Shown in pieces: positions 856 to 23,112 of a DNA stretch of 32,000 bases. The stretch is taken from NCBI GenBank assembly GCA_031316235.1, contig JALDRA010000001.1, forward strand, positions 3,900,001 to 3,932,000, in the 5' to 3' direction. This DNA comes from Candidatus Scalindua sp. GTDB taxonomy: Bacteria; Planctomycetota; Brocadiia; Brocadiales; Scalinduaceae. The notes beneath the pieces were generated by a model. That model had not been told where the DNA came from and ran no database searches. It saw only the letters and a list, made by a program, of their open reading frames with translations. The translations under genes and the position numbers were made by a program. Positions within the stretch are counted from its first letter, which is position 1; each line of letters begins with the position of its first letter.

Positions 856-2481
856 TTACCTTGGAAGGGCAAAGACCCATTTATCAAGCTTTCCAGAGTA
901 AATCTTCTCTCTGTCCCCAGTGCTAACCGGGTTGCGCAGCAGTTTGACACTGATGCCCCTGCTCTGTGCTGAAACCATAAAATCTTCTATAGCCTCCCTC
1001 ACATCGTAATCAATACTGTAGCATTTACTCAGATCAATAGTCAGGAGTGTTCCTTTGGGTATACCGGCCAATTCTTTTATAATTGCTCCTTTATTTAAAA
1101 AGTTAACGTCTTCAGCCAGGGTTATTCTCATTTGTTTTTCTCTAGCCCCTGTTTCCATATGCAGAAAGTGAGAATTTCTGTAGTTACGGATTAGGACCAC
1201 AACAGTACCTACACAGCACCCAAGACCGAGCCCTACCAGCAGATCGACAAATACTATACCAAGAATAGTAACGGTAAAAGGTAGAAACTGGTTCCATCCC
1301 AGTCTATATATCTGTACAAACAGAGAAGGTTTAGACAATTTATACCCTACCAGTAATAAAATACATGCAAGAGCGGATAACGGTATCATATTAAGAATAA
1401 CCGGAATAAACCCTACACAGATCAGCAGGAAAAAACCATGGAGTATCGTAGATAGTTTGGTTCTGGAACCGGCTTGAACATTGGCGGAACTTCGAACGAT
1501 TACCTGTGTAATCGGCAGCCCGCCAATCATTCCGCACAATATGTTTCCGGTACCTTGAGCAATTAACTCACGGTTGGTTGAGGTGATTCTCTTGTGGGGA
1601 TCCAGTTTGTCAGTAGCCTCCACACTTAAAAGTGTTTCAAGGCTCGCGATAATCGCAATGGTAACAGCTAAAATATACACTTCTTTATTGCCCAGTTGAC
1701 CGAAATCAGGAAAGGTAAACAGGTTGAAAAATGATGAGATACTGCCTGCAACCGGCACACTTACCAGGTGTTCCGGACCTAAGGTATATTGAGGGAAATA
1801 ACTTTTTGTTATAAACTGGCAGCAGATAGCAGCGGCTACCACAACTATGGGTCCCTGTATTAATTTAAAAATATTATATTTCTTCGTCAGATACAGCTCC
1901 CACAAGAGCAGAATCGACATTGAAATCGCAGCGATTAATACTGCCCCGGGTGTTAATTGATCAAGAATCTGCCATAGTAAGGTAAATGTGTTTTCACCTT
2001 CCTTCAAGACAAAAGAATCACTACCCATCCACTCTTTGTCTAATCCAAGCGCATGGGGTATCTGTTTCAGGATGATGATGATGCCAATGCCTGAGAGCAT
2101 TCCCTTTATGACGGCGGAGGGAAAAAAATACCCGATAACACCTGCTCTCGCTAGACCAAGTATTATCTGTATCACTCCTCCAATAGCAACTGCAAGCAGA
2201 AATGTTTCGAAAGAGCCGACCTTAGCCAGCGCATCCAGGATAATTACCGCAAGGCCTGCCGCCGGACCGCTGACTCCATGCGAGGAGTCACTTATGGAAC
2301 CTACAACTATCCCTCCGATTATTCCCGCGATAAGGCCTGAAAACAGAGGTGCTCCGCTTGCCAATGCGATTCCGAGACAAAGCGGCAACGCTACAAACAG
2401 TACGATAATACTTGCTGAAATGTCTTGTTTCAGATGAGAAAAAATTTCAAATCTCATTATTCCTCTTTTCATATCAGCCAT
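856..2481 (-). CDS. SulP-family anion (sulfate/bicarbonate-type) permease with a C-terminal STAS domain, copy 1
   Basis: ORF 856..2553. It is a long polytopic membrane protein with SulP-like segments (PLCLGIALASGAP, GVSGPAAGLAV, TSTNRELIAQGTGN) and a soluble C-terminal STAS-like tail. I prefer the ATG at 2481 because AGGAG lies 8 nt upstream and the start then aligns with the N-terminus of the paralog at 16780..18423. Confidence 0.9.
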   Translation of the reverse strand: MADMKRGIMRFEIFSHLKQDISASIIVLFVALPLCLGIALASGAPLFSGLIAGIIGGIVVGSISDSSHGVSGPAAGLAVIILDALAKVGSFETFLLAVAIGGVIQIILGLARAGVIGYFFPSAVIKGMLSGIGIIIILKQIPHALGLDKEWMGSDSFVLKEGENTFTLLWQILDQLTPGAVLIAAISMSILLLWELYLTKKYNIFKLIQGPIVVVAAAICCQFITKSYFPQYTLGPEHLVSVPVAGSISSFFNLFTFPDFGQLGNKEVYILAVTIAIIASLETLLSVEATDKLDPHKRITSTNRELIAQGTGNILCGMIGGLPITQVIVRSSANVQAGSRTKLSTILHGFFLLICVGFIPVILNMIPLSALACILLLVGYKLSKPSLFVQIYRLGWNQFLPFTVTILGIVFVDLLVGLGLGCCVGTVVVLIRNYRNSHFLHMETGAREKQMRITLAEDVNFLNKGAIIKELAGIPKGTLLTIDLSKCYSIDYDVREAIEDFMVSAQSRGISVKLLRNPVSTGDREKIYSGKLDKWVFALPR

Positions 2482-2700
2482 TGCCTGATCTCCTGTAAAA
2501 AATCCGCTCAAATGTTCGGCAGAGACAAATACCTGGCCCGATCCTTTCTCCAAGTAAAGCCGGGTTCATGGAACAAGGCTGCCCATGCCAAAAGATTTTG
2601 GTCGCCGGCAGCTTGTGAAAAAACCAAGTCGCAATATTCTCTGGTCTTGAATATACGCCATTTTAAACTCTTTTCCCTTATTGTAAGATCACAAATTTTT

Positions 2701-3330
2701 TTAAAGAACTGGAAAATTAATGATTCCATCAGACAAAAGGGTGCTTAAAAATGAGCAATAGACCTCTAAAATGTCTTTTCTTTTTGCCATTGCATAAGAT
2801 GCGATATAACCTGCCCAGTATGATCCCAGTTCAATGTTCTGTTTTTCTTCACCAAGGATCATGAGATCACAATCACACCCGCTTATGGGGGGTATACGTT
2901 TTTGCTGAAGGCACGCCCTTCTCCCCAGGAAAATATCACCCTTTTCAAATAATTGCTGCCAGAGCATTATTTCACTTTTATGTTTGATTTTCTGGTTTTC
3001 GGATAAAATTACTATATGAGGTATTGAAGTGCTTATTAAACGATTGGGAATTTTATTTTTTTCTTCAACCAGGATTGAATATACCTGGATCAGCAAATCA
3101 GGCCGAACTTCCTTAAATCTGCCCCATGACTGTTTTATGAAAATTTTGTTCGGCATAGAAACTGCAACTTCTTTTGATACGGAAAGCAACATTAATCTCT
3201 CATCATTTATTACATCTCTGGTTAATGGTGCAAACTCTAGATTTTCAGGAGAAATTAGATAGACAGGGTCTATCTGTTTCACAACCTGCTCGTGGATTTC
3301 TGCGATAATCGTTAGTGGCTGTCCATTCAT
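2701..3330 (-). CDS. hypothetical protein (209 aa), no family recognised
   Basis: Intact ORF on the same strand as its neighbours. I could find no recognisable motif. Confidence 0.45.
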   Translation of the reverse strand: MNGQPLTIIAEIHEQVVKQIDPVYLISPENLEFAPLTRDVINDERLMLLSVSKEVAVSMPNKIFIKQSWGRFKEVRPDLLIQVYSILVEEKNKIPNRLISTSIPHIVILSENQKIKHKSEIMLWQQLFEKGDIFLGRRACLQQKRIPPISGCDCDLMILGEEKQNIELGSYWAGYIASYAMAKRKDILEVYCSFLSTLLSDGIINFPVL

Positions 3331-3710: not shown

Positions 3711-4835
3711 TTAAAACATTGGTTCCATTGCAAGAACGGGATGGTTGACTTTCTGCAGGTGTTCAAAGACCTCTTCTTCTGTCACCGCTATGGTTTCGTC
3801 AGCAATCTTACTGACAAAATCTTCCAGCCCGGCAGATTCTGCAGCCTTAAGCAGGACATCACCGATCTCATCTTTGAGCTGTTTTGGCATCCACACCAGC
3901 CTGGCAAGACCACCGTCACCAGAAATAAATTTGCTGCTGCTCATGTAAAATTTGCTGTGCCCTACAAACCCGGGCGTCTGTATTCCACCTCCGACTGTTC
4001 CCGCAAGTGTAGAAAATTTCATCCCGCAGGGAGTCATACCTGTATAGTCTCTATCCACGGTCATTATCCCATTAGTCATCGGCAGCATGGCGGAGATACA
4101 TTCAAAACAACCGCAGCTTGTCATGGGATTCGTTACCATACTGTACATGCTTACCTGTTCAAACTCTCTGTTGGATGCCTGGTAGAGGAACCTGTTTGTC
4201 CCTTCCCAGAGGCCCAGCTTTTCATCTATCAATTTACCTTTTTCAATTGGTTGATTCGGGCCTGTCGGTGTTATTTCAAAACCTGCCTTCCCGTCCAGCC
4301 AGCTGACCGCACCGCACAAACCGGAACGTTCAGGAGATATTATGCATACGTGGCTGGGCGCGAAACTCTGGCACAGAGTACAGCTGTAAAATTGATTTAC
4401 TGATGCATCTGTCATCCCCAGTGCCCTTTCATCACGTTCGGTAAATGCCGCTTTCACCTCATCCAGCTTAGTCTCTACCTTATCTCTGTCTGTATACAAT
4501 GTTACCTGGACCTTGTCTAATAATGCACCGTACTCCTCATGATATTTGGAGTGAATTATTTTGCCTATGTGGAACAGCCTGAATCCTTTATCAAAAGCAT
4601 CCTTGCTGATTCTGTGCCTGATAATGTCTCTCTGCCCCATATGAAAGAATCCCTGTGCTTCTCCGAGGAAATGATGGGTTCTTCTTTCAAAGATCGGTTC
4701 AAATTCACTCTGCATCTTACGCCCGGATACCTCAATATATATCCCCAGCGATTTACCCGGACCCGGCTCCATTTCATCCATATCCGGACCAACCACATTC
4801 ACCTTACCATCTTCAATTTCACTATTATCCCTCAT
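3711..4835 (-). CDS. acsB: acetyl-CoA synthase (CODH/ACS alpha, AcsB), C-terminal two-thirds fragment carrying the A-cluster
   Basis: Carries the A-cluster Cys-Gly-Cys context MTSCGCFECI, plus FYSCTLCQSFAPSHVCIISPERSGLCGAVSWLD and a C-terminus (GLARLVWMPK...IADETI) that is colinear with Moorella AcsB as I remember it. It overlaps the upstream fragment by 4 nt (ATGA). Confidence 0.9.
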   Translation of the reverse strand: MRDNSEIEDGKVNVVGPDMDEMEPGPGKSLGIYIEVSGRKMQSEFEPIFERRTHHFLGEAQGFFHMGQRDIIRHRISKDAFDKGFRLFHIGKIIHSKYHEEYGALLDKVQVTLYTDRDKVETKLDEVKAAFTERDERALGMTDASVNQFYSCTLCQSFAPSHVCIISPERSGLCGAVSWLDGKAGFEITPTGPNQPIEKGKLIDEKLGLWEGTNRFLYQASNREFEQVSMYSMVTNPMTSCGCFECISAMLPMTNGIMTVDRDYTGMTPCGMKFSTLAGTVGGGIQTPGFVGHSKFYMSSSKFISGDGGLARLVWMPKQLKDEIGDVLLKAAESAGLEDFVSKIADETIAVTEEEVFEHLQKVNHPVLAMEPMF

Positions 4836-5890
4836 GACAACATATTCAAACGCCGGGGTACCCGGTCCCCTATCTCTATCTGCATATCCTCTTTTCTGAT
4901 TCTCTCGCCTTCGAATGCCGGGCCGTATGCAACCGGAATATCCACCTTCGCGGCAGCTACCTTTAACCCCCTCACCTCAATGCACTTTTCTACAATCTTA
5001 TCATGAGAAATATTGGGCACCACATGCTCATACGTACAAACACCTGTCGGCAAAACAGAAGGTATATCGGTATCCGCTATGGTCGGAAAACCATAGTTGA
5101 TAGCTCCCGCAGCATTTGCATATTTTTCATCATCCACCTCGCCCAGCGCCATGACAAAGGCAAAAATCCTGTTTTTATTGTAGAGCAGATTCCTCCTGAA
5201 GTCTCCTGCTTTTATACCTCCAAAAGATAACGCGGCTTTATTTGCAAATCCAAGGGAATAGATAGTAGCGGTAATGCTCTTGCCAAACGGTACAAGTCTT
5301 GTCTCCCACCCAAGCTGTACACCCTCTTCATCAAGCTGCTCCGCGAAAGATTTGCCGTTTGTGTTACCGGAGATAAAAACATACAGGTTTTTCTCCTGCA
5401 ACTCGCGCGCTATCTTCACGGCAATCTCATTTGTGGGCGCAGCTCCAACAACCGCAGCAAACCCCGGAGCAGTGCCGTCAACAAACTCTATCCCGCGTTC
5501 CCGCAGAATAACGTCACTCGCAGCTCCCAGCCATATCCCCTCTACAGGGTTCGGGCCGATAAGGTATTTACACGCCTCTAATACCTCCTCTGCAAAAAGC
5601 GTCGCTATGCCGGCATCCAGGGCCCAGCCGAGATACGGCAGCCATACTTCTTCTTCCGGCATGGGCGGTAATAACGCCCGTGCGTGCCCGAGTGCCTCTT
5701 CGCAATCAGACAGGGTCTTTACCTTCAGTGCAGTAGCTGCGTAGATTATGGGCAGACAGTAACCGGTGTTGGGAAATTCAACCTTCGCATCTTTCCCTTT
5801 TGATTCTATTGCTTCGTTTAATTTTGCCTCTGCCTGCTTTACAATAGAATATGCACCCCGTATTGCAGCAGAACATATTATTCTTGACAT
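4832..5890 (-). CDS. acsB: acetyl-CoA synthase (AcsB), N-terminal fragment; ends prematurely after a frameshift
   Basis: Colinear with the AcsB N-terminal domain up to ...VAYGPAFEGERIRKEDMQIEIGDR. The last 10 residues (VPRRLNMLS) are out of frame, and the expected TPAFEYVV continues in the frame of 3711..4835. Confidence 0.85.
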   Translation of the reverse strand: MSRIICSAAIRGAYSIVKQAEAKLNEAIESKGKDAKVEFPNTGYCLPIIYAATALKVKTLSDCEEALGHARALLPPMPEEEVWLPYLGWALDAGIATLFAEEVLEACKYLIGPNPVEGIWLGAASDVILRERGIEFVDGTAPGFAAVVGAAPTNEIAVKIARELQEKNLYVFISGNTNGKSFAEQLDEEGVQLGWETRLVPFGKSITATIYSLGFANKAALSFGGIKAGDFRRNLLYNKNRIFAFVMALGEVDDEKYANAAGAINYGFPTIADTDIPSVLPTGVCTYEHVVPNISHDKIVEKCIEVRGLKVAAAKVDIPVAYGPAFEGERIRKEDMQIEIGDRVPRRLNMLS

Positions 5891-6041: not shown

Positions 6042-8741
6042 CTACTGGCCGTTTAATTTCTCAACTTTGATTGCACATGACTTAAGCTCAGGGATCTTAC
6101 ATATCGGGTCAAATGCATCATTAGTAAGTAAGTTTGTCAATGCATCTCTGTGATGGAATGCGAGGAACGTAACGCCCGGCTGGGCTCTGTCGGTTATGTG
6201 TACCTTTATCTCCATTTTTCCTCTCCTTGAGCTGACGAGAACCTTTTCGTTATCCTTTATATCAAATCTCCTTGCATCATACGGATTCAGTTCTAATGTC
6301 TCATCAGGCCACTTGTCATATATTTTACTTGACCTTCTCGTCATGGAACCGTTGTTATAATGCTGTCTGCGACGGCCGGTCGTAAGGATAAGCGGATACT
6401 GATCATCGGGCACTTCAGCCGATGGCATGTGTTCCCTGAAATTGAACATGGCTTTCCCACTCGGCCTGTTGAATTTCTCCTCGTACATTATAGTCGTACC
6501 CGGATGATCTATATCAGGACATGGCCACTGGATTCCGTCAGGATCAAGTTTTTCATGATTAACCCCCGCAAACATGGGAGCAAGTTCCGCAAGCTCGTCC
6601 CATATCTCAGAAGGCGAAGAATAGTTCATATTTTTTATTCCAAGCGCATTTGCCACCATGCATATGATTTCCCAGTCCGCCTTGCCTCCCAATGGTTCGA
6701 TTGCTTTCCGAATGAGCTGTATCCTTCTTTCACCATTGGTGAAGGTGCCGTCCTTCTCCACGTGACTTGAGCCGGGAAGGATTACATCGGCAAACTCAGT
6801 GGTCTCTGTCGGCACGATATCCTGCACCACGAGGAAGTCTAATTTCTTCAGCCCGCTTTTTACGAAGTTGACATTGGCATTTGTCATGGCAGGATCTTCT
6901 CCGAAGATATAGTATGCCTTTAACGTTCCCTTATTCATTGCAATGTCCATCTCCGTACAGGTTAAACCCGTCTTCTCATCAAGCTCGACACCCCAGGCCT
7001 TTTCTAATTTAGCCTTTACCTTCTTGTCATCAAGCTTCTGATAACCAACGTGTACATTAGGCAAAGCTCCCATATCACACGACCCCTGGACGTTGTTCTG
7101 GCCCCGGGTAGGATTTATTCCCACGTTCGGTCTTCCAAGATGACCGGTAACGGTAGCAAGATTAGCCAGAGACATGACGGTGGCCGTTCCGGTTGAATGT
7201 TCTGTCATACCAAGACTGTAAATAATCATTGCCTTGTCAGTCTTTGCATACATCCTGGCAGCGTCAATAATCCTGTCTTTTGGAACACCCGTGATGCCTG
7301 AAACGTATTCGGGAGTGTATTTCATCACACCTTTCTCAAGCTCTTCGAATCCTTCGGTACGTTTCCTGATAAACTCCCTGTCCTCAAGCCCTTCATTTAC
7401 GATGACATGGACCAGCCCGTTTAACAGCGCTATATTCGTGCCTGGTATCAGGTTCAGCCAGATGTCAGCCCTCTCCGCAAGCTGGGTCTTTCTCGGATCA
7501 CCTACAATCAGTTTCGTCCCGTTATCGAGCGCGTCTTTTATCTTCAGTCCGATAATAGGGTGAGCCTCATAGGGGTTAGCTCCTATTACGAACAGAAGTT
7601 CCGCGTCACGGATATGTTCAAATGAATTTGTCGCCGCACCGCTGCCGTAGCATGCCGCCAGCCCCGAAACGCTCGCGCTGTGGCATACTCTTGCGCAGTT
7701 ATCAATGTTATTGGTACCCATCATTCGACCCAGTTTCTGGAATATATAGTTTTCTTCATTTGTACATCTTGATGAAGATAAGAATCCCAGGCTGTTCGGA
7801 CCATGCTTCTTCTTAATCTCCGTAAACTTATCGGCAATGAGCGTAATCGCCTCATCCCAGCTCGCCTCTTCCAGCTTTCCGTTTTTTCGTATCAGGGGTG
7901 TAGTTATCCTGTCCTTATGATGTATGTGCTCATAGCCAAACCGGCCCTTTACACAGAGACTTCCCTTATCATTAACCGGTGCATCAAAGCACTGAGAAAT
8001 GGAGACAACCTTTTGGTCTCTGATATTTAAGTAGTAATTGCAGCCTGTTCCGCAGTAGGTACAGGTGGTTCTGACCTTCTCAAACTGCCAGGACCGTCCC
8101 TTACCTTTGGTGGATAGCTCCTGTAACGACCCAACCGGACACGCTTCTATGCACTGGCCGCAAAGCTCACAGTCACCTTCCCTGGAAATATTAGTAGTAT
8201 TCGGAGTGCCTAAGGCCGTGAATCCCTTAGCCTTAAACCCGAGAGCGAAGGAATACTGAAGTTCAGCGCAGGTTCGAGAACACCTGGCACACATGATGCA
8301 TTTATCGCGATCCCACTCAATCACCCCATTATTGGGCAGTTCTGTGAATTTTCGTATCGTCTGCTGGCTCCATTCCGCGTGTACCTCGAACTGGTAGGAA
8401 TAATTCTGGAGTTCACACATACCTGTCTTTTCACAGGTCATACAGTCATTAGGATGGTTGGCCAGTATCAGTCTCAGGTTGTTTTTCCGTAGTTCCGCAA
8501 TATTATCACTTTCTGTCGTAACTTTCATCCCATCCCAGACAGGAGTGTTACAGGCAGTTACCGGACCAAGATTCCCATCTACCTCGACAACACATATCCT
8601 GCACTGTCCAAATGGTTTCAGGAGGTCCCAATGGCATAGAGTAGGAATATGTATCTTATTTTTTTTGGCAACCTGAAGGATAGTTTCACCTTCACCTGCT
8701 TCATATTCTTTCTGGTTCATTTGAAATGTAATCTTTTTCAT
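6042..8741 (-). CDS. fdhA: formate dehydrogenase alpha subunit, molybdopterin type with an N-terminal 2Fe-2S/4Fe-4S (NuoG-like) module, cysteine variant
   Basis: ORF 6042..8756. Motifs seen: 2Fe-2S region CHWDLLKPFGQCRICVVEV, ferredoxin motifs CIMCARCSRTC and CELCGQCIEACP, Mo-bisPGD cluster CTYCGTGCN, and active site CARVCHSAS (Cys codon at 7683-7685, no in-frame TGA). I prefer the ATG at 8741 (MKKITF...) because GGGAGA lies 5-6 nt upstream. Confidence 0.9.
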   Translation of the reverse strand: MKKITFQMNQKEYEAGEGETILQVAKKNKIHIPTLCHWDLLKPFGQCRICVVEVDGNLGPVTACNTPVWDGMKVTTESDNIAELRKNNLRLILANHPNDCMTCEKTGMCELQNYSYQFEVHAEWSQQTIRKFTELPNNGVIEWDRDKCIMCARCSRTCAELQYSFALGFKAKGFTALGTPNTTNISREGDCELCGQCIEACPVGSLQELSTKGKGRSWQFEKVRTTCTYCGTGCNYYLNIRDQKVVSISQCFDAPVNDKGSLCVKGRFGYEHIHHKDRITTPLIRKNGKLEEASWDEAITLIADKFTEIKKKHGPNSLGFLSSSRCTNEENYIFQKLGRMMGTNNIDNCARVCHSASVSGLAACYGSGAATNSFEHIRDAELLFVIGANPYEAHPIIGLKIKDALDNGTKLIVGDPRKTQLAERADIWLNLIPGTNIALLNGLVHVIVNEGLEDREFIRKRTEGFEELEKGVMKYTPEYVSGITGVPKDRIIDAARMYAKTDKAMIIYSLGMTEHSTGTATVMSLANLATVTGHLGRPNVGINPTRGQNNVQGSCDMGALPNVHVGYQKLDDKKVKAKLEKAWGVELDEKTGLTCTEMDIAMNKGTLKAYYIFGEDPAMTNANVNFVKSGLKKLDFLVVQDIVPTETTEFADVILPGSSHVEKDGTFTNGERRIQLIRKAIEPLGGKADWEIICMVANALGIKNMNYSSPSEIWDELAELAPMFAGVNHEKLDPDGIQWPCPDIDHPGTTIMYEEKFNRPSGKAMFNFREHMPSAEVPDDQYPLILTTGRRRQHYNNGSMTRRSSKIYDKWPDETLELNPYDARRFDIKDNEKVLVSSRRGKMEIKVHITDRAQPGVTFLAFHHRDALTNLLTNDAFDPICKIPELKSCAIKVEKLNGQ

Positions 8742-8888
8742 GTTTTCTCCCAACATTAATTATCTAGCTTGTAGACTTTGTAAAACTGCAAATTATATTT
8801 TTGAATTACCAAAAAACACCACTTACAGGTAACGCAATTTTCACTTGTGAATCTTTTCTTTACCATTTTCTTTGCACCCTGGATAACC

Positions 8889-9040
8889 ACAAAAAAAGCC
8901 AACACCTCAACCACAATACTTTTTTTAAAGTATTCGTGAAAAAGATGCTGGCTTACTCTGCAACAATTTTTCGTAACAAAAAATCCTTGCCAAGTCTTCC
9001 TTTAAAATCGCAAAGTACCTGAATTGAAAAAAATAATCAA
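8889..9040 (-). promoter_or_regulatory. conserved leader RNA module, copy 1 (candidate riboswitch/attenuator or sRNA) upstream of fdhA
   Basis: On the sense (minus) strand: GGAAGACT at 9000-8993 and GTTGCAGAGTAAGCCAGC at 8964-8947. The terminator is GCCAGC...GTTGGC plus T7, spanning plus coordinates 8891-8952. A weak promoter is possible (TTGATT 9040-9035, 17-nt spacer, TACTTT 9017-9012). Confidence 0.7.
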
Positions 9041-9233: not shown

Positions 9234-10139
9234 TTATATTAACAGCTCTTTCCCCGTAAGCTTACTATACGCCTCAAGATATTTTTCAGACGTAATCCGG
9301 ATTATGTCTTCGGGGAGCGAAGGCGGAGATGAATTTTTATCCCATCCGGTGCTCTCCAAATAATCTCTCACGAATTGCTTGTCGAATGATGGTTGAGGTT
9401 TTCCGGGTGAGTAATTTTCCATTGGCCAGAAACGCGATGAGTCTGGAGTCAGTATTTCATCGATTAAGAGCAGTTTGTCTCCATGTTTACCCCATTCAAA
9501 TTTGGTATCACATATTATGATTCCTTTCGTCAAGGCATATTCACTTGCTTTTTCATAAATCTCTATGCTTTTTTCTCTTAACTCTTCAGCGAGTTTCTTG
9601 CCCGCAATCTGTACCAGTTCGTCGAAAGAAATGTTCTCGTCGTGTCCGGAGGTTGCCTTTGTTGACGGGGTGAAAATAGGTTCTGGAAGTTTATCGCACT
9701 CTTTCAGGCCTGCCGGCAACTTAATTCCGCATACTGTTCCGCTTCCTTTATACTCTTTCCAGCCTGAACCAGCCAAATAGCCTCGTATTATGCATTCAAC
9801 AGGAATAACGTCAACTTTTTTTACCAGCATCGTCCGGCCACTTAAGGCATCATCGTCACCTTTTTTTATTCCTTTTATTCCTTTGACTTCTGTTGTGATT
9901 AAGTGGTTTTCTGTTATATCTTCAGTGCTCTTGAACCAGAATTCCGATAAATGGGTAAGCACTTTACCTTTATATGGAATCCCATCAGGCAGCACATAAT
10001 CAAAAGCGGAAATCCTATCTGTTGCGATAATTAACAAGCTGTCATCCAACTCATAAATGTCTCTAACTTTTCCGCTGCTGTAAAGTTTCAGATAAGGAAT
10101 ATTTGTTTTTAAGAGCATAGGATTGTTTCTCTGTAACAT
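9234..10139 (-). CDS. purC: phosphoribosylaminoimidazole-succinocarboxamide (SAICAR) synthase
   Basis: The 301-aa ORF contains LYSGKVRDIYE, IIATDRISAFD and CDTKFEWG, which are typical PurC segments. Confidence 0.93.
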   Translation of the reverse strand: MLQRNNPMLLKTNIPYLKLYSSGKVRDIYELDDSLLIIATDRISAFDYVLPDGIPYKGKVLTHLSEFWFKSTEDITENHLITTEVKGIKGIKKGDDDALSGRTMLVKKVDVIPVECIIRGYLAGSGWKEYKGSGTVCGIKLPAGLKECDKLPEPIFTPSTKATSGHDENISFDELVQIAGKKLAEELREKSIEIYEKASEYALTKGIIICDTKFEWGKHGDKLLLIDEILTPDSSRFWPMENYSPGKPQPSFDKQFVRDYLESTGWDKNSSPPSLPEDIIRITSEKYLEAYSKLTGKELLI

Positions 10140-10623
10140 AATTCAAATCCCCCGGGAACTGAGATCAAAGGCTTCACTTATTTTTCTCATTCCAATTTGT
10201 TAATTCTTTTTTCAAAACTCTCGGCAGGTGATAAACAGCCATTGTTTATCACCTCAGACCAACAGATTCTCTTGTGTCTATAGTCTCCGCGTTAAACATA
10301 ATTAAATTCAAAATACCTGGTATTTCTCTTGCGGGGGAAATTATGTTTCTGTTTAATTTCTTCCACCAGGAAATTAGCTCACTTACTCTGTCTTTGTGTA
10401 TTAGCCTGCATCTCTTCCACCAACCACAATTAGGCAATACAGCTACTCTTTGTTTTTATAGCCATTCAAAGATCTCCAATCGAATCTCATCAAATGACTT
10501 GCCAAACAGATCTCCGGGCAGTACTACATGACTGCAAACATCCAGTATCTCTTTGACTTCATCTGGAATCTTCCATTCTAACCACAGCCTGTTCATCGTT
10601 TTGTTTCCACTGTAAAACGGTAA

Positions 10624-10775
10624 ACAAAAAAAGCCAATGTCTGTCTACTTCCTCTCTCTTATGAGAACAAGTAGACGAACATTGGCTTACTCTTCAACAA
10701 TCCCTGTTGACTAAAGGATTCCTGCTTAGTCTTCCTGAATCAAAAAATCATAATTCAAAGAAATACATTAGTCAA
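10624..10775 (-). promoter_or_regulatory. conserved leader RNA module, copy 2
   Basis: On the sense (minus) strand: -35 TTGACT 10775-10770, 17-nt spacer, -10 TATGAT 10752-10747. GGAAGACT lies at 10735-10728 and GTTGAAGAGTAAGCCAAT at 10698-10681. The terminator is a long hairpin with a GCCAAT:ATTGGC base plus T7 (plus coordinates 10626-10686). Confidence 0.75.
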
Positions 10776-16766: not shown

Positions 16767-16794
16767 AAAAGTGCCATCATTAAGCCGGCACTTT
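16767..16794. terminator. hairpin AAAGTGCC-N11-GGCACTTT between the convergent TolC-like and SulP genes (weak terminator candidate)
   Basis: The 8-bp stem was read directly and overlaps the stop codon of SulP copy 2. The U-tract is short, so this is a low-confidence call. Confidence 0.3.
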
Positions 16795-18423
16795 ATTTCC
16801 GACGGGAAGGGCCGAGACCCATCTGTCAAGTTTCTCGGAGTATATCTCTTCTCTGCTCTCAACACTGTCCGATTTACACTTCACCCTGACAATAATGTCT
16901 TTTTCGTCTGCCGATACAATAAAATCCTCTATGATCTCCCGCACATCGTAATCAATACTATAACATTTACTCAAATCGATAGTCAGGATTGTTCCGCTGC
17001 GTATCTTTGAGAATTCATTCAAGATAGCCCCTTTATGTAAAAAAGTAACATCTTCTGCCAGGGTCATTCTCAATTGTTTCTTCCTGTCATATATCTCAAG
17101 ATGTAAAAAGTGAGAGTTTTTGTAGTTACGGATTAATATCATGGCAATACCAACACAACATCCAAGCCCAAGCCCTACCAGTAAATCAACAAAGACAATT
17201 CCAATGACCGTAGCCACAAACGGTATGAACTGGTCCCATCCCAGACGGTATATTTCTGCAAGCAGTGAAGGCCTGGACAATTTAAACCCTACCATTAATA
17301 AAATGCATGCAAGGGCGGACAACGGTATCATATTGAGAATGCCCGGAATGAGCCCTACACAGATCATCAGAAATGAACCATGAAGTATAGTGGATAATTT
17401 AGTTCTTCCACCGGCCTGAATATTGGCAGAACTTCGAATGATCACCTGGGTAATCGGCAATCCACCAATCATTCCGGATATGATATTTCCGGTACCTTGA
17501 GCGAATAACTCCCGGTTTGTTGACGTGACTCTCTTGTGAGTATCCAGTTTATCCGTGGCTTCCACGCACAGGAGCGTTTCTAAACTGGCGGCAATTGCAA
17601 TGGTAACAGCTAAAACATACACTTCTCTATTTCCTAACTGGCTGAAATCAGGAAAAGTAAACTGATCAAAGAGTGAGGTGAAGCTGCCTGCAACCGGCAC
17701 ATGCACCAGGTGTTCAGGACCCAAGTTAAGGAGAGGAAAATAACTCTTTGTTATTATCTGGCAGCAAATAGCAGCTACGACCACAACGATTGGCCCCTGC
17801 ATCAATCTGAATAGATCGTGTTTTTTTTTCAGATACAACTCCCACAGAAGTAAAATTGCCGTTGAAATAATAGCAATAAATACCGCTCCGGGTGTTACAT
17901 GTTGAAGAAGTTTCCACAGCAAGGTAAACGTGGTATCGCCACTTTTAAATGCTGAAGAAACACTGCCCATCCACTCTTTGTCTAATCCAAGCGTATGAGG
18001 TATCTGTTTCAGGACGATGATGATGCCAAAGCCCGCCAGCATCCCCTTTATGGCCGAAGAGGGGAAATAATACCCGATGATGCCTGCCCTTACCAGGCCA
18101 AGCAGTATTTGTATCACTCCCCCAATGACAACAGCCAGTAAAAATATTTCGAAAGAACCAATTTTAGCCAGTGCATCCAGGACAATTACCGCCAGACCTG
18201 CTGCGGGGCCGCTGACCCCATGTGCGGAGTCACTGATAGACCCTACAACCATCCCCCCGATTATGGCTGCGATAAGGCCGGAAAATAAGGGAGCTCCGCT
18301 TGTCAGGGCAATTCCAAGACAGAGAGGCAGTGCGACAAATAGCACCACAATACCTGCAGGTATGTCTTGCTGAAAGTGAGACAAGATTTCAAATTTCTTT
18401 CTGCCAGTTTCAATCTTAAGCAT
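16780..18423 (-). CDS. SulP-family anion (sulfate/bicarbonate-type) permease with a STAS domain, copy 2
   Basis: The 547-aa ORF is colinear with copy 1 along its whole length and is roughly three-quarters or more identical by eye. Confidence 0.9.
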   Translation of the reverse strand: MLKIETGRKKFEILSHFQQDIPAGIVVLFVALPLCLGIALTSGAPLFSGLIAAIIGGMVVGSISDSAHGVSGPAAGLAVIVLDALAKIGSFEIFLLAVVIGGVIQILLGLVRAGIIGYYFPSSAIKGMLAGFGIIIVLKQIPHTLGLDKEWMGSVSSAFKSGDTTFTLLWKLLQHVTPGAVFIAIISTAILLLWELYLKKKHDLFRLMQGPIVVVVAAICCQIITKSYFPLLNLGPEHLVHVPVAGSFTSLFDQFTFPDFSQLGNREVYVLAVTIAIAASLETLLCVEATDKLDTHKRVTSTNRELFAQGTGNIISGMIGGLPITQVIIRSSANIQAGGRTKLSTILHGSFLMICVGLIPGILNMIPLSALACILLMVGFKLSRPSLLAEIYRLGWDQFIPFVATVIGIVFVDLLVGLGLGCCVGIAMILIRNYKNSHFLHLEIYDRKKQLRMTLAEDVTFLHKGAILNEFSKIRSGTILTIDLSKCYSIDYDVREIIEDFIVSADEKDIIVRVKCKSDSVESREEIYSEKLDRWVSALPVGNKVPA

Positions 18424-18586: not shown

Positions 18587-19510
18587 TTAGAATTCCCATT
18601 TGAATTTTACTCCCCATGCACTGTTGGCCTCATGATTAAGGAGATCGCCGAAGTGCATATAGGCTATTGACATAGTCAAATGGTCATTAGCTATATACGT
18701 TATAAAACCGTCCCACCAATCATCTTCTTCTGCAATGAGTCCCGGGATTTTATCGTATTGATCAGGTTTTTGACGATACTCCCCACCTATCACAAGATTG
18801 TCCAGGGCCAGGACACCAAAGTTGCCTTCAAAGACGGTTTTCCGATTCTCAGTAAAGCCAAGCAGGCCAATCTGGGCAGCTTCAGTAGACCTGACACCCA
18901 CATTTATCATGAGAGGCCGCGGCAGTGATGTAATCATTTTAGATGCATAAAGAGTTACATCAACTCCATCGTCATCCTTGATACCTATAGCATTAAGTCC
19001 TCCCTGCAAACGTCTGTCTATGACTTCAGAATCATTGTTGTTCTTATAGTGCAGCCCCAACGTCAGGGCCGGCATCCATGATTTCTTAAAGTCCCCCTCT
19101 TTCAGTATCTGAAACCTGGTGTTAAAGTTATGCATATATATTGAATCCTCTATAGTGTCTATACCGGTACCTGCCCGGATATCCCTGGGTAAATCACCTA
19201 AATCAAGATGGTTTAAAGAATACCCAAATTCAAGCCGGCCCCACAGAGTTTCAGATACGGTAAATGCTTCCATGTGTCTTCCATGACCAATGTTAGCATA
19301 TGTCACACCACCGGCCGGCAGCCCGAAAACCCTGCCCTCTTCTGATGGATTTATGAGATAGGCGGAGCCGGTTATGAGGATTCCTCCAAACCCTTCAATA
19401 TTTTGTAATGGAAGTGGTGGAGCCTTCACTTTCTCTCCTGCAAACACGGTTTGGGCTGTCATGATAAGCACAAGGTAAACCAGACTATTGATCATAGATA
19501 TTTTCTTCAT
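18587..19510 (-). CDS. secreted outer-membrane beta-barrel (porin-like) protein, family not identified
   Basis: It has a signal peptide MKKISMINSLVYLVLIMTAQTVFAGE, an alternating amphipathic pattern and the C-terminal signature ...WGVKFKWEF. GGAGG lies 8 nt upstream of the ATG. Confidence 0.65.
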   Translation of the reverse strand: MKKISMINSLVYLVLIMTAQTVFAGEKVKAPPLPLQNIEGFGGILITGSAYLINPSEEGRVFGLPAGGVTYANIGHGRHMEAFTVSETLWGRLEFGYSLNHLDLGDLPRDIRAGTGIDTIEDSIYMHNFNTRFQILKEGDFKKSWMPALTLGLHYKNNNDSEVIDRRLQGGLNAIGIKDDDGVDVTLYASKMITSLPRPLMINVGVRSTEAAQIGLLGFTENRKTVFEGNFGVLALDNLVIGGEYRQKPDQYDKIPGLIAEEDDWWDGFITYIANDHLTMSIAYMHFGDLLNHEANSAWGVKFKWEF

Positions 19511-19639
19511 ATATTTCCTCCAATCTAATAAAGGTAGAATTAACTAATTAATACAGGCATACTATTATTTTCTTTTTCAGTCATGATGCAGTTTCAATGG
19601 CTCAGTCTTCCCTCACCGGTTTATTATATTTGCGTATAA

Positions 19640-19825
19640 GCAAAAAAAGCCAACTCCCTACCACCTGTCCATTCATCATGAGAACAGTATGATAGGTGTT
19701 GGCTTACTCTTCAACGGCCCCTTTTATTTAAAGTGCCTTTGCTTAGTCTTCCCCCACTGCTTCAAACAAACTTCCTCTCAACACTACAAATTTACTATCA
19801 TATTTTCATCCGCAATCATAGTCAC
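19640..19825 (-). promoter_or_regulatory. conserved leader RNA module, copy 3, upstream of the porin-like/SulP operon
   Basis: On the sense (minus) strand: -35 GTGACT 19825-19820, 17-nt spacer, -10 TATGAT 19802-19797. GGAAGACT lies at 19752-19745 and GTTGAAGAGTAAGCCAAC at 19715-19698. The terminator is GCCAAC...GTTGGC plus T7 (plus coordinates 19642-19703). Confidence 0.75.
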
Positions 19826-19890
19826 TAAATTGTTCCAGCCAGATTCTCCATTATACACGGGTTATTTTTAATTAGACAATAGAGTTATTG

Positions 19891-20265
19891 TCATGCTATT
19901 TCCTTATTCTTAAGCCTTGATTCCAGATTCTGCTCTAATATGAAAACAATTACCCTCTCTCCTGTTTTTGTGCTTATATCAGAGTGTAAACTTTTTATCC
20001 TGCATCCCGTAATTTCTATAATAATATTTTTCAATAAAGCCTTGGCTCCCTCTAATAATTGAACATGAGTTTCCTTTACCAAAGCTGCACCCTCCGAGGT
20101 TTTAGCCAACTGTTCTTCAGCCGGAGTCAGCACACCTTTAAGCTGTACGTATATAACATCCTTTATAATGTAGATAACTGTTTCTATAGGGCATCTACCC
20201 ATAAATTCTTGTTCAAACTTTATGATTGCTTCACTGATTTTTGCTTCGAATTGACACTTAGTCAT
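19891..20265 (-). CDS. DUF2294 / MpsC-family protein, copy 1
   Basis: ORF 19891..20460. The N-terminal 65 codons cover the leader module, so I place the start at ATG 20265 (MTKCQFEAKISEAIIKFEQEFMGR...). That start aligns with the paralog and with DUF2294 proteins (LKGVLTPAEEQLAKT, HSDISTKTGERVIVF). Confidence 0.8.
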   Translation of the reverse strand: MTKCQFEAKISEAIIKFEQEFMGRCPIETVIYIIKDVIYVQLKGVLTPAEEQLAKTSEGAALVKETHVQLLEGAKALLKNIIIEITGCRIKSLHSDISTKTGERVIVFILEQNLESRLKNKEIA

Positions 20266-20320
20266 AATTGTTTTAAGGACCTCTTGCTGAGTTATCCCGC
20301 ACCAATTACCATACCCATAA

Positions 20321-20476
20321 ACAAAAAAAGCCAACCTCATGTTCTTTACATACTCTAAAAAAGAGTATAGAAAACGGGGTTGGCTTACTTCGCAACAATT
20401 ATTTTGTATAGAAAATTCCTGCTCAGTCTTCCTTATAGTAGAATCTACTATATAATCCAAATAATTAAGAAGTCAA
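20321..20476 (-). promoter_or_regulatory. conserved leader RNA module, copy 4, upstream of MpsC-like copy 1
   Basis: On the sense (minus) strand: -35 TTGACT 20476-20471, 16-nt spacer, -10 TATATA 20454-20449. GGAAGACT lies at 20432-20425 and GTTGCGAAGTAAGCCAAC at 20396-20379. The terminator spans plus coordinates 20323-20384 with T7. Confidence 0.75.
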
Positions 20477-20552
20477 GTGTTTTTTAGATTCAGGTTGTCA
20501 TTTTTCGTATCATCTCTTAAATGATTGGTTCGATAAAGTTTATCCTGTTTAA

Positions 20553-20924
20553 CTAACCTTTATATTCAGATTCTAAATCATGATCTAATATAAAAACAAT
20601 TACCCTCTCTCCTGTCTTTGTGCTTATGTCAGAATGCAGGCTCTTTGTGATGCAGCCCGTAATATCCAAAATAATATTTCTCAGTAAAGACCTTGCCCCC
20701 TCTAATAATTGAGCACGAGTCTTTTTTATCAATAATGCGCCTTCAGAGGTCTTGGCAAGTTGCTCTTCAGCCGGGGTAAGGACGCCCTTAAGCCGAACTA
20801 ATACTACATCTTTTATAATGAAGGTATTCGTTTCCATAGGACCTCTACCCATAAAATCTTTTTCAAACTTTATCAATGCCTCGCTTATTTTCGCTTCCAG
20901 TTGGCCTTTGGTTAACTTTCCCAT
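20553..20924 (-). CDS. DUF2294 / MpsC-family protein, copy 2
   Basis: ORF 20553..20957 begins with a GTG. The ATG at 20924 gives MGKLTKGQLEAKISEALIKFEKDFMGRGP..., a typical DUF2294 N-terminus. Confidence 0.8.
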   Translation of the reverse strand: MGKLTKGQLEAKISEALIKFEKDFMGRGPMETNTFIIKDVVLVRLKGVLTPAEEQLAKTSEGALLIKKTRAQLLEGARSLLRNIILDITGCITKSLHSDISTKTGERVIVFILDHDLESEYKG

Positions 20925-20954
20925 ATGATTAAATATAAGAGTAATTATTTTGTA

Positions 20955-20976
20955 CACTAAAACCGATTTGGTTTTC
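20955..20976 (+). repeat. intergenic box family B, copy 3 (immediately upstream of MpsC-like copy 2)
   Basis: Sequence actaaaaccgatttggttttcg, containing the AAAACC-N5-GGTTTT palindrome. Confidence 0.55.
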
Positions 20977-21137
20977 GCTTAAAGAGAAAGAATAGATAAA
21001 TAATTACCAAAATCAAGAAGTATTTGGAAAATTATTTTTTATACCTATTGAGGTAATGGGAAATAACAAGACAAGCAGGGGAGATTTTTTTACAATTTGA
21101 AAATATGGCATAAGGGAAAAATAAGCCGTTAAAAGAA

Positions 21138-21289
21138 TTGACTATTTAATCTTTTTGGATTATAATGCCGCGCAAGTAAGGAAGACTGTACAAGAATTTC
21201 TAAAACCAAAGAAATTGTTGAAGAGTAAGCCAACATCAATTTCCAGACGTTATGTAAAAGAAAATCAGGAAATAGTGTTGGTTTTTTTG
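21138..21289 (+). promoter_or_regulatory. conserved leader RNA module, copy 5, upstream of oadGBA
   Basis: -35 TTGACT 21138-21143, 17-nt spacer, -10 TATAAT 21161-21166. GGAAGACT lies at 21180-21187 and GTTGAAGAGTAAGCCAAC at 21217-21234. The terminator is GCCAAC (21229-21234)...GTTGG (21277-21281) plus T7 (21282-21288). Confidence 0.8.
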
Positions 21290-21388
21290 TATCCACTGTG
21301 TATCAATTATGATTGGAATGAAAAGATATTATACTTCACCTTTATACGACAGTAAAACAGTCCACCGTTATCGGGGCATACTGCTATT

Positions 21389-21667
21389 ATGGAAATCAAA
21401 TTAAGTATTCAGAATATCCTGGATGGACGGGGTTTCGACATCTCAATTACCGGTATGGTGGTTGTATTTACAGCACTTGCCTTGATAAGTGCCTTTATCT
21501 CCCTCCTTCCCGCTATTTTGAGGATAGTTAACAGGATATTTCCGCAGGAAGAAGCTTCCCATGCCCCTTCTCTGTCACGGAGTTCGCATACACCGGAAAA
21601 TGAGGTGATAGCAGCAATCGGATTCGCTCTTCACATGGCAAAGGAAAAACATGTTTTTAACGATTAA
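21389..21667 (+). CDS. oadG: Na+-pump decarboxylase gamma subunit (OadG family)
   Basis: The 92-aa protein has a single N-terminal TM helix (ITGMVVVFTALALISAFISLL) and sits immediately upstream of the beta subunit. Confidence 0.7.
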   Translation: MEIKLSIQNILDGRGFDISITGMVVVFTALALISAFISLLPAILRIVNRIFPQEEASHAPSLSRSSHTPENEVIAAIGFALHMAKEKHVFND

Positions 21668-21747
21668 ATAGCGTATTGAATGGAAATTAACCTGTTTTTT
21701 GGAATGGATTACAACTAACATCTACCTGATATTTCGAGAGGATATAA

Positions 21748-22875
21748 TTGGAAATTTTTTATGAGTTTCTTAATACAACCGGTTTTGCAATGATGACATG
21801 GGGCAATGCTATCATGATACTGGTAGGTATCATTTTTGTCTCTCTTGCCATTATCAAAGATTATGAGCCTTTGCTGCTTCTCCCTATCGGATTTGGGGCA
21901 ATCGTTGGAAATATACCTTCAATTCAGGGAATGGCCCTTAATGTATACGATGAAGGAAGCGTTCTGAGTTATCTGTACTATGGTGTCAGCAAGGGTATAT
22001 TCCCCCCTATTATATTTCTTGGTATCGGAGCCATGACAGATTTTTCCACTATGCTCTCTAATCCCAAGCTGGTTCTGCTTGGTGCGGCAGCCCAGATAGG
22101 GATATTCCTGACGCTAATCGGCGCCTTGTATCTGGGGTTTCCTCCTTCAGATGCCGCATCCATAGGGATCATAGGTGGCGCGGATGGACCTACAGCAATA
22201 TTTTTGTCAGCTAAACTTGCTCCGCATCTTTTAGGTTCTATTGCCATAGCCGCCTATTCGTACATGGCCCTTGTCCCGGTAATACAACCTCCGATAATGA
22301 GACTGCTTACTACCAGAAAGGAACGTCTGATACGGATGAAAGCACCAAGACATGTGCCACAGCGGGAAAAAATCATTTTCCCGGTTGCAGCTTTTCTTGT
22401 TGCCGCATTGATTGCTCCGGGTGCCCTGGTGCTCATAGGAATGCTTTTCCTCGGAAATCTCTTAAAGGAAAGTTGTGTGACAGAACGTCTGGCTAATACA
22501 GCACGTAATGCGATGATTGATATCGTAACAATCTTTCTCGGATTTTCAGTCGGGGCGAGTACCCAGGCACAAACCTTTCTGACCCATCAATCGCTACTTA
22601 TTTTTGGTCTGGGTGCCTTGTCATTTGCTATAGCAACTGCAGGCGGCGTACTTTTTGCCAAGTTAATGAACCTCTTTATTCGTGAAAAGATAAATCCTCT
22701 TATCGGAGCTGCTGGTGTATCTGCGGTACCTGACTCTGCACGAGTTGTTCAGATGGTTGGACAGAAAGAGGATCCGCACAATTTCCTGCTTATGCATGCC
22801 ATGGCCCCCAATGTAGCCGGGGTAATCGGCTCGGCTATCTGTGCAGGTATTTTATGGTCTGTACTGGTAAAATAA
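21748..22875 (+). CDS. oadB: Na+-translocating decarboxylase beta subunit (OadB/GcdB/MmdB family)
   Basis: The 375-aa polytopic protein starts colinear with OadB (..[20 protein letters not shown]). It uses a TTG start with GAGAGGA 6 nt upstream. Confidence 0.88.
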
Positions 22876-22929
22876 GGTAATAATTATTTCTTAACTGGTA
22901 TTGCGAGAGAGCAGACATACTCATTGCAT

Positions 22930-22970
22930 AAGGGTTTTTGGATAAAATCCGAGATAAAATTGAGCGAGTA
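22930..22970 (+). repeat. intergenic repeat family A, copy 2 (oadB-oadA spacer)
   Basis: Sequence aagggtttttggataaaatccgagataaaattgagcgagta. Confidence 0.6.
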
Positions 22971-23112
22971 TACCTTCACCAAGATTTGGTATAGCATAAA
23001 GGATAATAAGAAATCTGATATCTGATTTAAGAAGAGCATGTATGTTTATAATTAATTTCCATCTGTAAAATTCTATAGAAGCAGGATTTTGTTTTGGTTT
23101 TGAGGGAGAAGT

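Follow-up and report, generated by a model that had tools for sequence, protein, structure and literature searches.

The locus described here raises a question of function: what do five copies of one structured RNA leader, all inside 12.3 kb of a bacterial genome, do for the genes behind them, and what operates them? The copies lie in a 32,000-nt stretch of Candidatus Scalindua sp. (GenBank assembly GCA_031316235.1, contig JALDRA010000001.1, positions 3,900,001 to 3,932,000), here called the window, whose own numbering is used below; they had been pointed out in a first-pass annotation made from the letters alone. We found that each copy is a rod-like fold whose last nucleotides belong also to an intrinsic terminator, and that across the phylum genes of the MpsC/DUF2294 protein family nearly always accompany this RNA. 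Each unit is very probably a cis-acting attenuator in which the closed rod withholds the AAGCC foot of the terminator, so that rod closure means ON. The whole statement, that this cis-acting ON attenuator is operated by an MpsC protein, we put at a probability of about one half, judging from comparative sequence evidence.

Five copies of a leader RNA and their overlap with terminators

The pattern GGAAGACT-N(30-45)-AGTAAGCCA, also written GGAAGACU-N30-45-AGUAAGCC, matches the window five times, at 8949-9000, 10683-10735, 19700-19752 and 20381-20432 on the minus strand and at 21180-21232 on the plus strand, and it occurred in 0 of 100 dinucleotide-preserving shuffles of the window. All five sense-strand cores of the first-pass annotation were thereby confirmed in position and strand. 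A sixth copy was found in the 4.26 Mb genome neither by the pattern nor by a covariance model.

Folded alone, each core forms a rod, with z-scores of -2.6 to -4.7 for the five copies, which reproduces the fold that had been drawn by hand. The order of elements in the window is GG:CC, an AAG/AAG loop, ACU:AGU, a 3x3 loop, a 3-bp P3, one purine.G mismatch and a variable hairpin. For the family as a whole, the rod comprises P1 (GG:CC), a symmetric ANG/AAG loop, P2 (ACU:AGU), a 3x3 loop, P3 (YAA:UUR), a conserved purine.G mismatch and a variable P4. When about 60 nt of downstream sequence were added, a hairpin of 55-60 nt starting from AAGCC was formed, followed by seven U, and in all five copies it consumed the CC of P1. 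The whole leaders including this hairpin fold at -27 to -48 kcal/mol, and seven U stand after every hairpin, as had been claimed. Because the terminator hairpin takes the CC of P1, rod and terminator are mutually exclusive, and this shared CC supports the ON-switch layout that the first-pass annotation had read from it. AAGCC is common to the rod and the terminator foot in all five copies and throughout the family, and a T-run follows 124 of 135 metagenomic copies. A stable hairpin directly abutting a U-run is the mark of an intrinsic (Rho-independent) terminator; a simple terminator scanner does not pick these hairpins up, their loops and bulges being over its limits.

The individual units are arranged as follows. 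Copy 1 occupies 8889..9000 on the minus strand, behind purC and ahead of fdhA (rod, or putative aptamer, 8947-9000; terminator hairpin about 8896-8954; U-tract 8889-8895; covariance-model score 67.4 bits). For copy 2 (10624..10735, minus strand; 71.7 bits) the rod is at 10681-10735, the terminator at about 10631-10688 and the U-tract at 10624-10630. The same parts of copy 3 (19642..19752, minus strand; 66.7 bits) lie at 19698-19752, 19649-19705 and 19642-19648, and those of copy 4 (20323..20432, minus strand; 61.7 bits), which sits between two mpsC genes, at 20379-20432, 20330-20386 and 20323-20329. Copy 5 (21180..21288, plus strand; 73.1 bits) has its rod at 21180-21234, its terminator at 21227-21281 and its U-tract at 21282-21288. 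To call copies 3 to 5 'back to back', as had been done, is loose, since two mpsC genes intervene and copy 5 is on the opposite strand.

Copies 2, 4 and 5 each have a promoter-like site (10-11 of 12 consensus matches) whose end is 9-14 nt upstream, namely TTGACT-17-TATGAT at 10747..10775 (minus strand, 10/12), TTGACT-18-TATAGT at 20447..20476 (minus strand, 10/12) and TTGACT-17-TATAAT at 21138..21166 (plus strand, 11/12). These bear out three of the four clear promoters previously assigned; for the other, at copy 3, the sites reach 9-10/12 and lie 45 and 98 nt upstream. For copy 1 a weak candidate promoter had been noted, and our scan found no good promoter-like site upstream of it. Since this copy also stands directly behind purC, it may be an operon-internal attenuator.

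The distance from the U-tract to the next start codon is about 130 nt for copy 1 (fdhA), 131 nt for copy 3 (DUF3034), 57 nt for copy 4 (mpsC) and 100 nt for copy 5 (oadG), so that for these four copies the gene start falls within the 28-150 nt given earlier. The exception is copy 2, past whose U-tract a 46-aa open reading frame (ORF) begins after 24 nt, purC being about 480 nt away. Between the copy-2 terminator and purC (10140-10623, minus strand) there are only this ORF (10456-10596) and a 62-aa ORF without Pfam match. Between the copy-3 terminator and the DUF3034 start codon, at 19552-19614 (minus strand), we noticed a half-copy of the 5' strand of the motif (GGGAAGACUGAGCC; 13.8 bits with the covariance model, E 0.36), which may be the relic of a decayed tandem copy.

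Extent, conservation and covariation of the RNA family

About 170 distinct family sequences were gathered. The motif is present in 17 of 40 relatives of the same order, with 1-9 copies per genome; in a second family of the order, represented by complete genomes of 3-4.4 Mb, no copy was found in the genomes searched. A GC-rich version occurs in metagenome-assembled genomes (MAGs) labelled Planctomycetia, Phycisphaerae, Pirellulaceae and others, and in 120 metagenome contigs, many of which, by name, apparently come from a few large sampling projects. Of 61 genomes of another planctomycete family (f8) with a completeness of 95% or more, 15 were found to carry the motif by a second covariance model, R2. 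The first model, R1, was built from AT-rich copies and is insensitive beyond the anammox order. A strict 20-base pattern hit only 4 of 400 genomes of the phylum, a strong under-count by comparison with R2, and a 16-base pattern scan of genome contigs gave at least about 15 real members among the matches listed, most matches being due to chance.

The segments GGANGACU, the 5' YAA-R patch, the 3' G-UUR and AGUAAGCC are invariant or nearly so across all lineages; in alignments A5 and A9 the conserved positions are GGANGACU, AAR, GUU and AGUAAGCC, all within the rod. P1, its loop and P2 are nearly two-fold symmetric, GGAAGAC standing over GUAAGCC, and the second conserved patch (AAR/GUU) is placed about one helical turn off on an otherwise plain rod.

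Covariation was examined in three alignments, containing 24 close copies, 65 distinct sequences drawn from both lineages and aligned with the covariance model, and 106 metagenomic sequences aligned by MAFFT, which is blind to structure. In all three, 95-97% of the cells are paired, values reached by 0 shuffles, and pairing fell to 23-51% when the partners were slid by 1-3 columns. Double changes were seen in the 106 metagenomic sequences at 10 of the 12 pairs in P3/P4 and at 14 of the 16 in the terminator, and P3 and P4 also covary in the 65-sequence set. The compensatory variation that had been noted in the apical hairpin and the terminator base is therefore borne out by larger alignments. 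P2 is almost invariant, with one compensatory change (A-U to G-C) and four changes of C-G to U.G.

Tandem arrays of 2-4 complete units with a period of about 129 nt also occur. Arrays of four, four and three units lie at L167 (G029:C109) 8476-8921, L179 6148-6888 and L165 4897-5213, respectively, and in the two genomes of family f3 the arrays stand ahead of a 230-235 aa protein without Pfam match, behind which comes a NeuB-family gene. In the GC-rich lineage (A9, loci L205-L324) the terminator hairpin is conserved in sequence too (GACGUGGUCGAAUACC...GGGUGUUC.GCCACGUCGGC) and may do more than terminate. One record labelled as a Candidatus Kuenenia stuttgartiensis MAG (L098) carries the GC-rich variant and not the AT-rich anammox variant; the contig is probably mis-binned.

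Linkage of the RNA to genes of the MpsC/DUF2294 family

What the first-pass annotation overlooked is that MpsC/DUF2294 paralogues are encoded by two of the three genes lying between or downstream of the copies in the region. One of them, mpsC-A (DUF2294/PF10057, 20553..20924, minus strand; 123 aa, isoelectric point (pI) 8.7), has no motif in front of it, lies 120 nt 5' of copy 4 and is the candidate for a trans-acting factor. The other, mpsC-B (DUF2294/PF10057, 19891..20265, minus strand; 124 aa, pI 6.7), lies behind copy 4 as the gene that this copy would control.

This arrangement recurs as a module of mpsC-A, motif with terminator, and mpsC-B. In essentially every genome with the motif, mpsC-A is found 76-350 nt 5' of the motif unit; it shares the strand of the unit in the Scalindua lineage, and in GC-rich lineages it is mostly divergent. 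A more diverged mpsC-B often comes directly past the terminator. Most upstream copies have a basic pI (8.5-9.6), and an acidic one (5.2-6.7) prevails among the copies that are controlled or lie inside an operon. On short metagenome contigs, an mpsC gene lies within 600 nt of 42 of the 135 motif copies (19 upstream divergent, 7 upstream on the same strand, 16 directly downstream) versus 0 of 103 control loci.

The two also occur together by genome. Among the 40 relatives of the order, 17 have the motif, 17 have PF10057, 16 have both and 22 have neither; in other words, PF10057 is present in 16 of 17 genomes with the motif versus 1 of 23 without. The exceptions are one MAG that is 79% complete and one genome of the motif-less family. 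In family f8, whose 61 genomes represent 57 genera, PF10057 is present in 14 of 15 motif genomes versus 4 of 46 motif-less ones, and these four have one mpsC gene each, of the A type, and lack a B copy. Of the motif-less relatives of the order only G036 has mpsC; the gene (L325, C1:1443500-1451500) lies between topoisomerase I and NuoE/NuoF-like genes, and no long ORF is present in a gap of some 1.2 kb downstream of it. A covariance search with filters off found no motif copy in this neighbourhood, the best score being 10.7 bits.

The AlphaFold model of MpsC (mean confidence, pLDDT, 90.8) shows the order helix-hairpin-helix-helix-hairpin-helix, and a sequence search of MpsC against solved structures gave no match. 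Its closest reviewed relatives are the uncharacterised Bacillus subtilis proteins YbcI (41% identity, TM 0.95) and YrhF. A complex prediction for two copies of MpsC-A scored 0.15, which carries no weight either way. In Staphylococcus aureus, mpsC lies behind the bicarbonate-transporter genes mpsAB with a weak terminator between them, and its deletion had no growth or transport phenotype, so that it was judged dispensable for transport (PMC6689103). By its gene neighbourhoods, the MpsC family keeps company with inorganic-carbon and formate genes in distant phyla.

Genes behind the leader RNA

The first gene behind copy 1 encodes an FdhA-like formate dehydrogenase/CO2 reductase (6042..8756, minus strand). 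It is followed in the same direction by acetyl-CoA synthase (the beta subunit of carbon monoxide dehydrogenase/acetyl-CoA synthase, CODH/ACS; 3711..5890, minus strand), and a SulP-family transporter (856..2553, minus strand) ends the gene string. A 209-aa ORF without Pfam match (2701-3330, minus strand) precedes the SulP gene and is found directly behind the motif in relatives. The CODH/ACS beta gene is split into two overlapping ORFs, 3711-4835 and 4832-5890 (minus strand; 374 and 352 aa), and in a genome of the same genus (G002) it is a single ORF of 726 aa (L168:5723-7903); the split could be a frameshift, a sequencing error or real. PurC (SAICAR synthetase; 9234..10139, minus strand) is the first sizeable gene behind copy 2, at a distance of 480 nt. 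Behind copy 3 are a DUF3034 protein (18587-19510) and a SulP-family transporter (16780-18423), both on the minus strand, and behind copy 5, on the plus strand, oadG (21389-21667), oadB (21748-22875) and an oadA-like carboxyltransferase/biotin carrier gene (23113-24933). The 32-kb window thus holds two SulP-family paralogues (856-2553 and 16780-18423), each ending a gene string headed by the motif.

In Scalindua-type relatives, OadGBA lies behind the motif in seven genomes. SulP is usually followed there by a beta-carbonic anhydrase, and this company suggests bicarbonate transport; FdhA occurs with a 4Fe-4S protein, PurE (AIR carboxylase) also lies behind the motif, and one contig has the order phosphoenolpyruvate carboxykinase (PEPCK)-PurC-MpsC-biotin carboxylase. 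Further targets are a multihaem cytochrome, a Cache-PAS protein, a DksA-like protein and ORFs without Pfam match. As annotated, most of the assignable targets in the anammox lineage make, move or consume CO2 or bicarbonate. The targets in the GC-rich lineage are Hsp20, Band 7, YflT, a hibernation factor with baeRF, BON and DUF892 proteins, sigma factors, response regulators and PAS kinases, a set that reads as general stress; MpsC is the commonest first downstream gene (14 of 103). Besides MpsC, the regulons of the two lineages have little in common.

Proposed mechanism and the nature of the rod-closing factor

We propose the following mechanism. Transcription would start a few bases upstream of GGAAGACU, and the first 55 nt or so would fold into the rod, whose last five nucleotides (AAGCC) double as the terminator foot. 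By default the terminator would prevail, and a leader RNA of about 110 nt would be released. If the rod is held shut, the terminator would be left without its foot next to the U-tract, and RNA polymerase would read into the genes (ON). The factor holding it shut would be MpsC/DUF2294, namely the basic A paralogue encoded beside the RNA, by a logic like that of HutP, GlcT or BglG antitermination, and the motif-controlled acidic B paralogue would provide feedback. In the Scalindua-like anammox bacterium, the five switches would join CO2 reduction and acetyl-CoA synthesis, bicarbonate transport, purine carboxylation and oxaloacetate decarboxylase. On account of this predicted gene set, the input there is likely to be inorganic-carbon status. 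The stress regulon of the GC-rich lineage points to a more general signal, for example ionic strength, pH or energy state.

Two mechanisms of other kinds were dropped: leader-peptide attenuation, as there is no start codon or ORF inside the conserved rod, and an RNA thermometer, as control is at the terminator and not at the ribosome-binding site.

The RNA presents a conserved element overlapping the 5' arm of an intrinsic terminator, as is found in protein-dependent antitermination. Several observations favour MpsC as the factor that closes the rod. An mpsC gene that is not itself under motif control is its constant neighbour and is often divergent, which is the arrangement of a regulator and its target, and the A copies are basic. 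The near two-fold symmetry of P1, loop and P2, together with a second patch one helical turn away, would suit a protein site. The RNA core is also the same although the regulons differ, and a protein can swap its input while keeping its RNA site. These grounds, all of them indirect, suggest that MpsC binds the RNA.

Other points weigh against this proposal. No result obtained here demonstrates RNA binding by MpsC, and its fold matches (by Foldseek and VIA-align) all have Z below 7, giving no clear relative and justifying neither an RNA-binding nor a ligand-binding assignment; they include Bet3/V4R/YslB-like proteins, RbfA, S6-like, tail-terminator and other two-layer alpha/beta proteins. The Fisher test for family f8 gave 2e-9, which overstates the association, since genomes that share ancestry do not count as independent. 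There are also genomes with MpsC but no motif, namely G036 and the four of family f8, and presumably those of Firmicutes. Co-occurrence and adjacency would be expected as well if MpsC were the core regulated gene of a riboswitch regulon. As to the rod, P1 (GG:CC) never varies and so receives no support from covariation, which leaves its pairing to be inferred. Finally, the assembled RNA contigs described below can neither measure termination nor exclude carry-over of DNA.

The chief alternative, a strong rival that we regard as possible and rate somewhat lower, is a new riboswitch class. The rod itself would bind a ligand or ion, the bound form would keep AAGCC from the terminator (ON), and MpsC would be the most conserved member of the regulon; judging from the anammox regulon, candidates for the ligand would be bicarbonate or a CO2-linked metabolite, and judging from the GC-rich one, Na+, another ion or a stress signal. 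The RNA has what riboswitches in general have, a conserved structured aptamer with covarying stems and an expression platform sharing its nucleotides, and its roughly 22 near-invariant nucleotides are concentrated in the internal loops between these stems. Tandem copies are known for riboswitches, the same core in distant lineages is what a single ligand would lead one to expect, and the anammox regulon makes chemical sense as a whole (FdhA, ACS, carbonic anhydrase, SulP, PurE, PurC, oxaloacetate decarboxylase, PEPCK and biotin carboxylase). Size and layout, moreover, resemble those of small ion riboswitches, of which the Na+ riboswitch is likewise an ON switch that controls oxaloacetate decarboxylase (PMC9337991). 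However, a riboswitch leaves unexplained the mpsC gene outside motif control that almost all genomes with the motif have just upstream of it, in many cases in divergent orientation. With its symmetric core and two conserved patches spaced by one helical turn, the plain rod would also resemble a protein site more than a ligand pocket; apart from MpsC, there is little overlap between the regulons of the two lineages; and it would be counter-intuitive for high bicarbonate to activate genes of bicarbonate uptake. Control of the rod by MpsC is the reading that we favour.

Action in cis

In Scalindua-type relatives, every array with enough flank precedes a gene start on the same strand, 20-370 nt downstream. 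In the GC-rich metagenome set, orientation was determined by codon-position GC, with many cases left 'unclear', since the longest-ORF method was noisy there (57:37). The downstream genes were 22 on the same strand versus 4 on the opposite one (binomial p = 5e-4), and the upstream genes 17 versus 22. The first-pass view of a cis-oriented leader ahead of genes is in line with this difference. In the tandem arrays, a unit of about 108 nt and a period of about 129 nt leave about 21 nt between a U-tract and the next rod, a gap too short for a promoter, so that the units must be transcribed in series.

RNA contigs from two wastewater metatranscriptomes, error-free over 21185-21650 and 21191-21901, begin 5-11 nt inside copy 5 and cross its terminator into oadG/oadB. 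As assembled contigs, they tell us that a bridging molecule exists and give no termination ratios, starts or strands, and stretches without contig cover, such as those around copies 2 and 3, carry no meaning.

These data bear on the possibility that the units are a family of trans-acting small RNAs (sRNAs), in which the terminated transcript of 105-115 nt would be the functional product and the gene-proximal position incidental or secondary. Copies with strong promoter-like sites of their own and efficient-looking terminators would suit such a family, as would the conserved sequence of the terminator hairpin in the GC-rich lineage. We nevertheless consider it improbable, for the downstream genes are co-oriented and the upstream ones are not, the tandem copies have no room for promoters of their own, the RNA contigs continue from the leader through the terminator into oadG/oadB, and the target gene families recur across genomes. 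The interpretation first suggested, a riboswitch class or a paralogous sRNA family, is supported in part: the ON-attenuator layout stands, the sRNA is unlikely, and the riboswitch is unproven and rated somewhat below a protein-operated switch.

A mobile or dispersed repeat without regulatory role, of the kind of miniature inverted-repeat transposable elements (MITEs) or repetitive extragenic palindromes (REPs), is suggested by a repeated unit of about 110 nt containing a hairpin, and deserves next to no credence: the copies are not scattered without orientation, as the first-pass annotation would have expected of a repeat, but number five within 12.3 kb and are biased in orientation towards downstream genes (22:4), they differ by compensatory changes, the RNA is conserved across families of the phylum with recurrent downstream gene families, and the real dispersed repeat of this genome is a different one (74 nt, at least 40 copies, both strands).

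One copy of that 74-nt repeat lies at 22917-22990, in the oadB-oadA spacer, and the genome copies are 89-96% identical. It accounts for a spike in summed RNA-contig depth (200-530x) and for loose contig ends at this place.

Relation to catalogued RNAs

The core had not been recognised as a family that could be named. A search of the whole window with the 4227 models of Rfam 15 at gathering thresholds gave 0 matches, and at E up to 10 the segment 19500-21500 gave only SNORD27, mir-3927 and mir-465 (17-21 bits), which are chance matches to eukaryotic models. The DUF1646 (Na+-I) and nhaA-I (Li+) riboswitch models, recommended by the first-pass annotation for particular attention and, we take it, contained in Rfam 15, do not apply, as no Rfam 15 model matched. 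Full-text literature searches returned nothing on such an RNA, on a bicarbonate or CO2 riboswitch, on riboswitch candidates of Planctomycetes or on an RNA tied to MpsC/DUF2294. With respect to Rfam 15 and the literature searched, the RNA family, its association with DUF2294 and the anammox carbon-fixation regulon are new; the contest of terminator and antiterminator itself is classical.

That the RNA is a diverged member of the Na+-I/DUF1646 or Li+/nhaA-I riboswitch families is extremely unlikely: the ON-switch layout and the association with oxaloacetate decarboxylase are common to both sides, but no part of the window reaches an Rfam 15 gathering score, the permissive scan gave only chance matches, and the Na+-I aptamer has two stems versus the single rod here (PMC9337991). 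OadGBA, behind the motif in seven genomes, would fit a link to Na+; most other targets (FdhA, ACS, PurE, PurC, carbonic anhydrase and the stress proteins) have none.

Implications

Anammox bacteria grow on CO2 and are responsible for much of the nitrogen lost from the sea. To our knowledge, next to nothing is established about how they regulate carbon fixation, and genetic manipulation is not yet possible in them. One leader RNA uniting carbon genes in a regulon offers a concrete, testable handle on this control. It is a tentative and rather unlikely suggestion that mpsC-A, rod-terminator and mpsC-B make up an unrecognised signalling system reporting CO2/bicarbonate status in anammox bacteria, with DUF2294/MpsC as a new class of RNA-binding antiterminator or, alternatively, with a new riboswitch class. 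If true, it would co-ordinate the entry of CO2 into the Wood-Ljungdahl pathway (FdhA, ACS) with carbonic anhydrase, bicarbonate transport and carboxylases, would be the first RNA-level control circuit for CO2/bicarbonate, and would give a function to MpsC, YbcI and YrhF, the neighbours of inorganic-carbon and formate genes in Firmicutes. The linkage to MpsC provides a first functional hypothesis for a widespread family that lacks an assignment even in S. aureus and B. subtilis. Either outcome would be new, be it a protein-RNA antitermination pair or a riboswitch class, whose signal might be inorganic carbon or ionic. At about 110 nt, the element is small enough for direct in vitro tests, and family f8 offers complete genomes that carry it, some perhaps from culturable and genetically tractable planctomycetes.

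Comparison with known systems

In the BglG, SacY, LicT and GlcT systems, the ribonucleic antiterminator (RAT) is an imperfect hairpin with conserved internal loops, the 3' side of which overlaps the 5' arm of a terminator, and binding of the protein keeps the hairpin closed and leads to read-through; the glcT gene lies ahead of ptsG. The present RNA resembles these systems in the overlap of hairpin and terminator, in a quasi-symmetric RNA element and in a putative regulator gene beside the RNA target. It differs in that its rod is about twice as long and without evident sequence likeness to RAT, and in that the candidate regulator is a DUF2294 protein of 120 aa with no link to the phosphotransferase system (PTS), whereas the RAT-binding proteins are of the CAT-PRD type with a PTS link.

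HutP of the B. subtilis hut operon is a small, ligand-activated protein whose gene is immediately 5' of the terminator that it overrides, and it acts as a hexamer recognising spaced UAG triplets. The order of regulator gene, attenuator and regulated genes is that of mpsC-A, motif and genes in the Scalindua lineage. The RNA sites are unlike: regularly spaced NAG triplets in hut, versus conserved bases inside a rod with internal loops here. HutP did not come up when MpsC was compared by fold, though the two could still be related.

Tandem sites for thiamine pyrophosphate (TPP), glycine, T-box and PyrR regulation are examples of serial riboswitches or attenuators. Here too, one operon may be headed by a series of two to four complete units, all of which have a terminator, and by analogy such units would be expected to sharpen the response; the present arrays are unusually regular, with up to four units of the same class at a period of about 129 nt.

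The Na+-I riboswitch consists of stems P1 and P2 with conserved bases at the P1 foot and in the P2 loop; its terminator competes with P2, it is an ON switch, and oxaloacetate decarboxylase is among its targets (PMC9337991). Like the present RNA, it is small, overlaps a terminator, turns genes on and is found in several copies per genome on different operons (PMC9337991). The conserved nucleotides differ as well as the number of stems, and the covariance models give no match for the present RNA, in which the terminator competes with the closing pair P1 and not with P2. CO2/bicarbonate enzymes and MpsC, and not cation transporters, dominate the gene set described here. As to the neighbourhoods of MpsABC and of YbcI-YrhF, no such leader RNA has been described there, Firmicutes genomes being outside the present search; what these neighbourhoods and the Scalindua locus have in common is a DUF2294 gene beside genes for inorganic carbon (PMC6689103).

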